A stretch of DNA of 64,000 nucleotides. Origin: Pseudomonas phage Presto. The notes beneath the pieces are model-generated. The model was given only the letters and a program-made list of their open reading frames with translations, did not search any database and was not told where the DNA came from. Every line of letters begins with the position of its first letter. Position 1 is the first letter of the stretch. The DNA is taken from sequence record PQ533662.1; one strand, given 5' to 3'. Made by a program: the position numbers and the translations under genes. Positions 17,928 through 18,902 of the stretch are shown here, in pieces.

Positions 17928-17947
17928 TGGGCCACTTTCGGACAAGC

Positions 17948-17985
17948 GGCACATTGTGCCTATTGCGTATTAGGCACAATGTGCC
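17948..17985 (+). promoter_or_regulatory. paired palindromes GGCACATTGTGCC / GGCACAATGTGCC (acr promoter, Aca1 operator-like)
   Basis: Two 13-bp palindromes 12 nt apart in the G-acr intergenic region. Confidence 0.65.
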
Positions 17986-18038
17986 TAATCTAACGTCATG
18001 CCAACCACAACGGCGAGGCGCAAACAAGGATAGACACC

Positions 18039-18461
18039 ATGAGCAGCACGATTTCAGACCGCATCATCTCCCGCTCGGTTATTGAAGCGGCTCGATTCAT
18101 TCAGTCCTGGGAAGATGCGGACCCCGACAACCTGACTGAAAGCCAGGTTCTGGCCGCTTCTAGTTTCGCCGCCAGGCTCCATGAGGGGTTCCAGGCTACC
18201 GTCCTGCAACGACTCGTGGACGACTCCAATCATGAAGAGTATCGCGAGTTCAAGGCGTGGGAAGAGGCGCTACTCAACGCAGATGGACGAGTCGCGAGCA
18301 ACCCATTTGCCGATTGGGGGTGGTGGTATCGCATCGCCAACGTGATGCTTGCCACTGCCTCGCAGAACATAGGCGTCGCCTGGGGAAGCCACGTACATGG
18401 TCGTTTAATGGCTATTTTTCAGGACAGGTTCCAACAGCATTATGAGGATGAGGAATGCTGA
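18039..18461 (+). CDS. anti-CRISPR protein, AcrIF3-like
   Basis: 140 aa, lower GC. I recognise MSSTISDRIISRSVIEAARFIQSWEDADPD... as AcrIF3. Sits in the G-I junction upstream of aca1. Confidence 0.7.
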   Translation: MSSTISDRIISRSVIEAARFIQSWEDADPDNLTESQVLAASSFAARLHEGFQATVLQRLVDDSNHEEYREFKAWEEALLNADGRVASNPFADWGWWYRIANVMLATASQNIGVAWGSHVHGRLMAIFQDRFQQHYEDEEC

Positions 18462-18679
18462 AGCCTGACGCCTCCAACCACAATCCAGACCCGCGCTACC
18501 TGCGCGGGCTGCTCAAGAAAGCCGGCATCAGCCAGCGGCGCGCAGCCGAGCTGCTCGGCCTTGGTGACAGGGTGATGCGCTATTACTTGAGCGAGGACGT
18601 CAAGGAGGGCTACCGCCCCGCGCCGTATACCGTCCAGTTCGCCCTGGAGTGCCTTGCGAACGACCCGCCATCTGCGTGA
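18455..18679 (+). CDS. aca1: Aca1 anti-CRISPR-associated HTH regulator
   Basis: ...PDASNHNPDPRYLRGLLKKAGISQRRAAELLGL...YTVQFALECLANDPPSA matches Aca1. Confidence 0.8.
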   Translation: MLKPDASNHNPDPRYLRGLLKKAGISQRRAAELLGLGDRVMRYYLSEDVKEGYRPAPYTVQFALECLANDPPSA

Positions 18680-18837
18680 TCACCTGATCCGCCCGCAAAC
18701 GCGCTACACGCGCCGAAACGGGGTTAGTCGCTACCTCGCATCAGAGTCGTTGCGTTAACCCCGTTAGAACCCCGTTAGAAATCGCTCCAGCGCCATTCGT
18801 GTGCCAGGGTTTGGCCAGAAGATGGCGCCGGACGGTT

Positions 18838-18902
18838 TCCGCAGTCGTTGAACCCCTTCCCGTAACCGCCGCGCTCGACCGTCGCCACCATTGGCGGCAT
18901 GG
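18838..18902 (+). promoter_or_regulatory. conserved promoter-like element, copy 2 (ahead of I gene)
   Basis: Same CGTTGAACCCCTTCC core and GCCACCA-TTGGCGGC inverted repeat spanning the ATG as at 10128..10190. Confidence 0.5.

Follow-up and report, generated by a model that had tools for sequence, protein, structure and literature searches.

The 64,000-nucleotide stretch of Pseudomonas phage Presto analyzed here (sequence record PQ533662.1; the whole of it is hereafter the window) contains at 17928..18898 a region that is almost certainly the anti-CRISPR operon acrIF3-aca1, carried by a Pseudomonas aeruginosa prophage of the Mu-like JBD93 type (Casadabanvirus). The first of its two genes, a 140-amino-acid (aa) open reading frame (ORF) at 18039..18461 starting with MSSTISDRIISRSVIEAARFIQSWEDADPD, matches the Pfam profile PF21401 (Cas3 inhibitor AcrF3) over profile positions 1-129 of 129 (E-value 4.2e-86; 286 bits, cut-off 27) and recovers the AcrF3 entries 5GQH, 5GNF, and 5B7I from the PDB with E-values of ~5e-81 (5gqh_B, 5.4e-81). 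The second, a 74-aa helix-turn-helix (HTH) protein, recovers the solved Aca1 chains 7C0G, 7FA3/7VJM, and 7VJN with E-values of ~1e-43 (7c0g_A, 8.6e-44). Upstream of both genes lie two copies of the Aca1 operator palindrome, and the entire region is found without a single nucleotide difference in phage JBD93. The cassette is thus already known: published work covers its proteins and their structures as well as the operators, down to the serine-to-glycine variant of Aca1 found here, and the gene is annotated by NCBI. The features of the region and its flanks are as follows.

17460..17927 (+): left flank, a Mu G-like virion morphogenesis/tail-completion gene, outside the cassette (PF05069 Phage_tail_S, E 4e-26; equals JBD93 gp32)
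17928..18696 (+): acr cassette proper, 769 bp, with promoter/operators, leader, acrIF3, and aca1 (missing from the acr-less phages Meltemi and MP38)
17944..17964 (no strand): inverted repeat 1 (IR1), the upstream Aca1 operator, core GGCACATTGTGCC at 17948..17960 (by comparison to JBD30 IR1)
17963..17968 (+): putative -35 element TTGCGT, our own assignment (spaced 17 nt from the downstream TAATCT; also conserved in JBD30 and JBD88a)
17969..17989 (no strand): inverted repeat 2 (IR2), the predicted repressing Aca1 operator, core GGCACAATGTGCC at 17973..17985 (fills the gap between the putative -35 and -10)
17986..17991 (+): putative -10 element TAATCT, our own assignment (shares bases with the 3' flank of IR2; unchanged in JBD30 and JBD88a)
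17992..18038 (+): predicted transcribed leader, with the block CAACGGCGAGGCG (18008..18020) and a ribosome-binding site AAGGA (18026..18030) (conserved in JBD30 and JBD88a)
18039..18461 (+): acrIF3, predicted 140-aa Cas2/3-binding type I-F anti-CRISPR (Pfam, PDB, JBD93 annotation)
18455..18679 (+): aca1, predicted 74-aa HTH repressor of the acr promoter (PDB Aca1, JBD30 gp36)
18697..18898 (+): native G-I intergenic spacer, 202 bp, outside the acr insert (follows G in acr-less Meltemi, 189/202 bases identical)
18899..19996 (+): right flank, a Mu I-like head maturation protease/scaffold gene, outside the cassette (PF10123 Mu-like_Pro, E 6.8e-104; equals JBD93 gp36)

The AcrIF3 and Aca1 proteins

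The 140-aa protein is identical to JBD93 gp33, named 'anti-CRISPR protein AcrF3' in RefSeq, has 7 substitutions in 140 positions relative to JBD88a gp33 (95% identity), and differs from the crystallized AcrF3 of JBD5 at 18 of 138 positions, mostly conservatively (87.0% identity). With the JBD5 protein (gene 35) it further shares its length class (139 vs 140 aa) and genomic niche. The JBD5 acr locus is presumably larger and multi-gene, going by the gene numbering cited in PMC3993853. Searches with tblastn detect the AcrIF3 family in 43 phage records, all from Pseudomonas save one 'Bacteriophage sp.' record, with the exact variant of the window in seven of them; in a 15-billion-protein collection the exact sequence occurs on at least 998 contigs, as 'anti-CRISPR protein AcrF3 [Pseudomonas aeruginosa]', and so does the exact Aca1 sequence. 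The PHROGs families matched by the two proteins are labeled as of 'unknown function'. Structurally characterized AcrF3 is an all-helical homodimer that sits on the HD, linker, and C-terminal domains of the type I-F Cas2/3, covers its DNA entry groove, and prevents its recruitment to the Csy-DNA complex, with primed acquisition being blocked as well (PMC5113301, PMC5859409). The protein encoded in the window can be safely inferred to possess the all-α six-helix AcrF3 fold, is expected to form a homodimer by extension from the solved complex (PMC5113301), and by homology would bind Cas2/3 and block type I-F interference. Its close relative in JBD88a comes from the phage used as the acrIF3 representative in plaquing assays against the PA14 type I-F system (bioRxiv 10.1101/279141).

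The start of aca1 overlaps the end of acrIF3 by 7 nt (18455..18461), with GAGGA repeats just upstream. The homology of its product was tested by direct comparison with the solved protein, and it is identical to JBD30 gp36 at 68 of 71 positions (96%). We examined the residues contacting DNA (JBD30 numbering, which equals that of the window +5), namely R44, V45, R47, Y48, and R59, which read the DNA, and R22, Q32, S42, and Y49, which contact the backbone. Eight of these, viz., R22, Q32, R44, V45, R47, Y48, Y49, and R59, are all retained (window positions 17, 27, 39, 40, 42, 43, 44, and 54), and S42 is replaced by glycine (window position 37). This substitution occurs naturally in the Aca1 homologs of D3112 and JBD93, and S42G binds IR2 like the wild type (dissociation constant, Kd, of 59 vs 74 nM), in contrast to S42A, which does not (PMC8633003). 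The N-terminus is five residues shorter than that of JBD30 Aca1 (74 vs 79 aa), as is also the case in JBD88a and JBD24. In vivo repression of acr transcription by the JBD30 protein is summarized in PMC8633003.

Promoter, operators, and leader

The motif GGCACANTGTGCC, with at most one mismatch allowed, matches only the two palindromes GGCACATTGTGCC and GGCACAATGTGCC in the whole 64 kb, against a mean of 0.26 matches in shuffled sequences, where two matches were reached in 1 of 100 shuffles. The upstream site IR1 (AAGCGGCACATTGTGCCTATT) differs from the published JBD30 IR1 (AAGCGGCACACTGTGCCTATT) by a single change in the central spacer base, C to T, and IR2 with its flanks (ATTAGGCACAATGTGCCTAAT) is letter for letter the 21-mer of JBD30 IR2 that was used in isothermal titration calorimetry (ITC). 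That 21-mer binds Aca1 with a Kd of 74 nM by ITC, and its core with the 3' flank is part of the duplex in the Aca1 co-crystal (PDB 7VJM); measured per site, JBD30 Aca1 binds with Kd values of 53 and 74 nM, and differences in flank and spacer leave its affinity unaffected (PMC8633003). In JBD30, IR1 binds and titrates Aca1, and repression proceeds only through IR2 (PMC8633003).

The 17 nt between the putative -35 and -10 are exactly the core of IR2 together with its 5' flank, and Aca1 bound at IR2 would therefore occlude RNA polymerase. The assignment of these two elements is in keeping with the report that every Aca system has one inverted repeat inside its core promoter (PMC9410906). From the stop codon of G to the acr start, the window, JBD30, and JBD88a are 94% identical. 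All acr-bearing loci examined carry the leader block CAACGGCGAGGCG ahead of their first acr gene, as a single copy except in JBD88a, which has two. The experimentally dissected acrIF1-aca1 locus of JBD30 resembles that of the window in its near-identical promoter and leader, identical IR2, IR1 changed at one base, and Aca1 with 96% identity, and differs in the acr gene itself (acrIF1, a Csy-complex binder, as opposed to acrIF3) and in the form of Aca1 (79 aa with Ser42 as opposed to 74 aa with glycine).

An initial annotation of this DNA, made from the sequence alone, had recognized AcrIF3 and Aca1 in the 140-aa and 74-aa ORFs overlapping by 7 nt, and had placed two palindromes within 17948..17985 in an operator layout like that of the acr loci of JBD-type phages. 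The database and literature comparisons uphold both identifications, the ORF arrangement, and the operator layout, and the palindromes lie exactly where it had put them.

Genomic setting and boundaries of the cassette

Positions 33..25000 of the window are 100% identical to positions 1..24968 of JBD93 (KU199709/NC_030918), and the remaining part of that phage matches 25001..36652 with 94.6% identity. The extent of this match implies that the window carries a complete Casadabanvirus (Mu-like, transposable) prophage from ~35 to 36652, and the drop from 100% in the left 25 kb to 94.6% in the tail half indicates a mosaic whose best available relative switches at ~25 kb. A megablast search of GenBank phages with 17400..19400 retrieves JBD93 and vB_Pae_U4 at 100% identity over 100% of the query, followed at 99.8% by Komp_PA14_H and PfII40a (100% of the query) and a short ZCPA1 record (92%). 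In all of these, G, the promoter, acrIF3, aca1, the spacer, and I correspond to the JBD93 gp33-gp34 locus, with the same nucleotides throughout or, in some records, at 99.8%; JBD93 itself shows zero differences from the window within 17928..18898, its divergence being confined to the tail half (25001..36652).

The gene order is G - acrIF3 - aca1 - I, with portal, F, and T homologs surrounding the G-like and I-like genes (Pfam), and the placement of the cassette between G and I recurs across the Casadabanvirus family. The extent of the insert can be read from two members of this family, Meltemi and MP38, which match the window only from 18697 on: in Meltemi the stop codon of G is directly followed by the sequence starting at window position 18697 and then by I, with neither acr nor aca genes. 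This empty site defines the mobile module as 17928..18696 (769 bp). The GC content is ~0.65-0.67 in the flanks, drops to 0.55-0.59 within the region, and is 0.583 in the cassette as against 0.642 in the whole prophage; by segment it is 0.523 in the promoter/leader, 0.556 in acrIF3, 0.649 in aca1, and 0.619 in the spacer, with the value for aca1 being typical of the phage. The proposal that the flanks are the Mu G and I genes, and that the position is that of JBD-type acr loci, is corroborated by PF05069 and PF10123 and by the recurrent G-to-I placement. On the other hand, the proposed lower-GC insert of ~0.9 kb at the G-I junction needs trimming: 17928..18696 is indeed inserted, but the ~200 bp of 18697..18898 are native spacer found in Meltemi/MP38, and the lower GC holds for the promoter/leader and acrIF3 and not for aca1.

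Alternative explanations

Several observations weigh against a functional acrIF3-aca1 operon. A generic sigma-70 scan of 17800..19000 called no promoter at its thresholds, and the -35/-10 assignment is our own reading of the sequence and spacing. The Aca1 ORF finds no match in Pfam or NCBIfam, and the predicted function of this copy of the cassette is drawn from homology to studied systems. The 64-kb window has no cas genes and no type I-F, I-E, or I-C repeats at up to three mismatches; this negative search implies that it holds neither a CRISPR array nor a solitary-repeat RNA anti-CRISPR. Finally, a statement on JBD93a in PMC5727412 derives from a type I-E assay, and either is limited to I-E activity or concerns a different isolate.

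That the cassette is mere phage baggage in its present host, with no I-F target or with an AcrIF3 variant that is inactive or altered in specificity, would fit the missing I-F cas genes and repeats and the 18 substitutions relative to the crystallized JBD5 protein. We nevertheless consider this unlikely, given that neither ORF is disrupted and that the promoter and operators are canonical, that the occurrence of the exact protein on at least 998 contigs argues for maintained function, and that the changes relative to the AcrIF3 of JBD88a, the representative phage in I-F assays, are conservative (95% identity); moreover, the window amounts to ~1% of a P. aeruginosa genome, and the absence of cas genes from it tells little. 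Far less probable still is that the palindromes function chiefly at the RNA level, as a hairpin that terminates or attenuates the G transcript at its end, with the HTH protein being a generic antitoxin-like or XRE-like regulator unrelated to acr. IR1 and IR2 do combine into a 15-nt perfect inverted repeat around an 8-nt loop (17948..17962, 17971..17985) that begins 21 nt past the stop codon of G, and the Aca1 fold resembles those of the antitoxins HigA2 and MqsA (PMC8633003). However, two copies of one palindrome are mutually complementary by construction, no T-run follows the hairpin, and a terminator scan of 17800..19000 made no call after G or aca1. Moreover, the per-site binding and the IR2 co-crystal described above (PMC8633003) speak for DNA operators, as do the conservation here of all residues that read the GGCAC half-site and the demonstration, in the near-identical JBD30 system, of Aca1 binding at both sites and IR2-dependent repression. 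We hence retain the acrIF3-aca1 operon as the explanation of the region.

Proposed mechanism

Given the organization of the operon and the studied homologs, we propose that a strong promoter directly behind gene G (putative -35 TTGCGT and -10 TAATCT) would fire upon infection, and the resulting AcrIF3 homodimer, as in the solved structures, would clamp Cas2/3 and cover its DNA entry groove. Cas2/3 would thereby be kept from the Csy/Cascade-target complex, with both interference and primed spacer acquisition being blocked. Aca1, translated from the overlapping downstream ORF, would by homology accumulate, dimerize, and bind the GGCAC-N3-GTGCC palindromes; on IR2, between -35 and -10, it would switch the promoter off, and IR1 just upstream, with a similar affinity for Aca1, would titrate it. 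This repression is likely to matter as it does in JBD30, where it is essential because unrestrained acr transcription harms the phage. In the lysogen, low-level expression would keep any host I-F system disarmed; the inactivation of such a system by the prophage is mechanistically sound and depends on the host having one.

Multi-acr relatives and the leader

The JBD88a/MP22 locus (acrIE2-acrIF3-aca1) agrees with the window in promoter, operators, aca1, and spacer, and its AcrIF3 is 95% identical, but it has acrIE2 ahead of acrIF3 and is exactly 312 bp longer, the window thus showing the one-acr form. In JBD88a, each acr gene is preceded by a copy of a 58-nt segment made up of a degenerate IR2, the -10, and the leader; the two copies (874..931 and 1186..1243 of the JBD88a locus sequence; window counterpart 17973..18030) are 312 bp apart and 76% alike. 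The equality of this repeat spacing and the length difference from the one-acr form implies that the two forms are related by one repeat-bounded unit, which suggests recombination between leader copies as the route by which acr genes come and go. A broader version of this idea, in which the segment with the degenerate IR2, -10, GCCAnCCnCAACGGCGAGGCG, and ribosome-binding site is a portable junction traveling with individual acr genes, and leader recombination drives their gain and loss across Casadabanvirus, is one that we put forward only with considerable doubt. As a speculation, the strictly conserved leader block GCCAnCCnCAACGGCGAGGCG could also serve as an element of post-transcriptional control, for which Aca2 offers a precedent.

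The native G-I spacer

The spacer downstream of aca1 is nearly invariant in nine phages and contains a conserved hairpin (arms 18717..18726 and 18756..18765) and a tandem duplication of AACCCCGTTAG (two copies at 18757..18778). We considered it as a structured RNA and rejected this: its fold has a z-score of only -2.3 relative to shuffles, 0 of 63 predicted pairs covary in the nine phages, and one phage has a 20-nt deletion in a predicted stem. An Rfam search of 18697..18898 returned nothing. Likewise, TAACCCCGTTAG as a repeated late-activator site is unsupported, with the motif occurring in the window only within the spacer. In phage Mu, the late promoter P_I precedes gene I, and by analogy the spacer probably carries the promoter and 5' untranslated region of the I/Z head operon. 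A reverse ORF of 41/42 aa (18775..18900, -), which overlaps the start of gene I, is annotated in many phage records (JBD93 gp35; PHROG 10291, of unknown function), and is indistinguishable from a chance ORF in conserved non-coding DNA.

Other features of the window

Elsewhere in the prophage, a type II hammerhead ribozyme is detected at 8875..8946 (+) with the full-length Rfam model RF02276 (66.2 bits; gathering score, 37). It occupies the whole 70-nt gap separating JBD93 gp17 from gp18 and lies immediately ahead of the gemA/mor-like regulators; hammerhead and twister ribozymes linked to genes of Mu-like phages have already been reported (PMC10085705).

The prophage, with TG at 35 and CA at 36652, is inserted in a minus-strand MFS transporter gene (1..34 and 36653..37024; MFS_1, E 2e-10), and chromosomal genes of P. 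delhiensis and P. citronellolis match this gene with 87-89% identity. A scan of genome contigs with a 30-mer from the right flank points to these same two species and not to P. aeruginosa. A clean 5-bp target-site duplication was not recognized, the left flank ending in AGCAGGC and the right flank starting with AGCCGGC. At ~37024/37025 the MFS fragment gives way to another temperate phage, unrelated to the first (~37024..64000), beginning with the final ~434 nt of its tape-measure gene. This second phage is ~98% identical to the Turba/LPPA56/Meadow-like phages and lacks the terminase-to-tape-measure half. Its remainder encodes tail and lysis genes, a SRAP gene (48027..48716), an integrase (50196..51497), a C5 methylase (53712..55865), and an S24 CI-like repressor (59711..60376), and its gene order stays colinear across the lysis-to-integrase junction, an unusual feature in an integrated prophage. 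The MFS/tape-measure junction is found in none of the contigs read that encode the first gene of the second phage, all of which carry that phage intact; a deletion, a rearrangement, or an assembly join may account for the junction. Three further records, PQ533659 (Meadow, 78.8 kb), PQ533658 (Hali, 80.6 kb), and PV425003 (GXNNB6, 67 kb), are ~2x the usual Casadabanvirus length, with that of Meadow holding a Mu-like genome together with a genome of the type of the second phage, and may be composite or co-assembled.

Implications

The discovery value of the locus is small, and its practical use lies in annotation: the strain can be flagged as having a prophage able to disarm type I-F CRISPR-Cas. 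The boundaries given by the empty site (17928..18696) may aid automated callers of acr loci, and the annotation is relevant to phage-therapy design, to CRISPR-based typing or editing of the strain, and to the reading of any self-targeting spacers in it.

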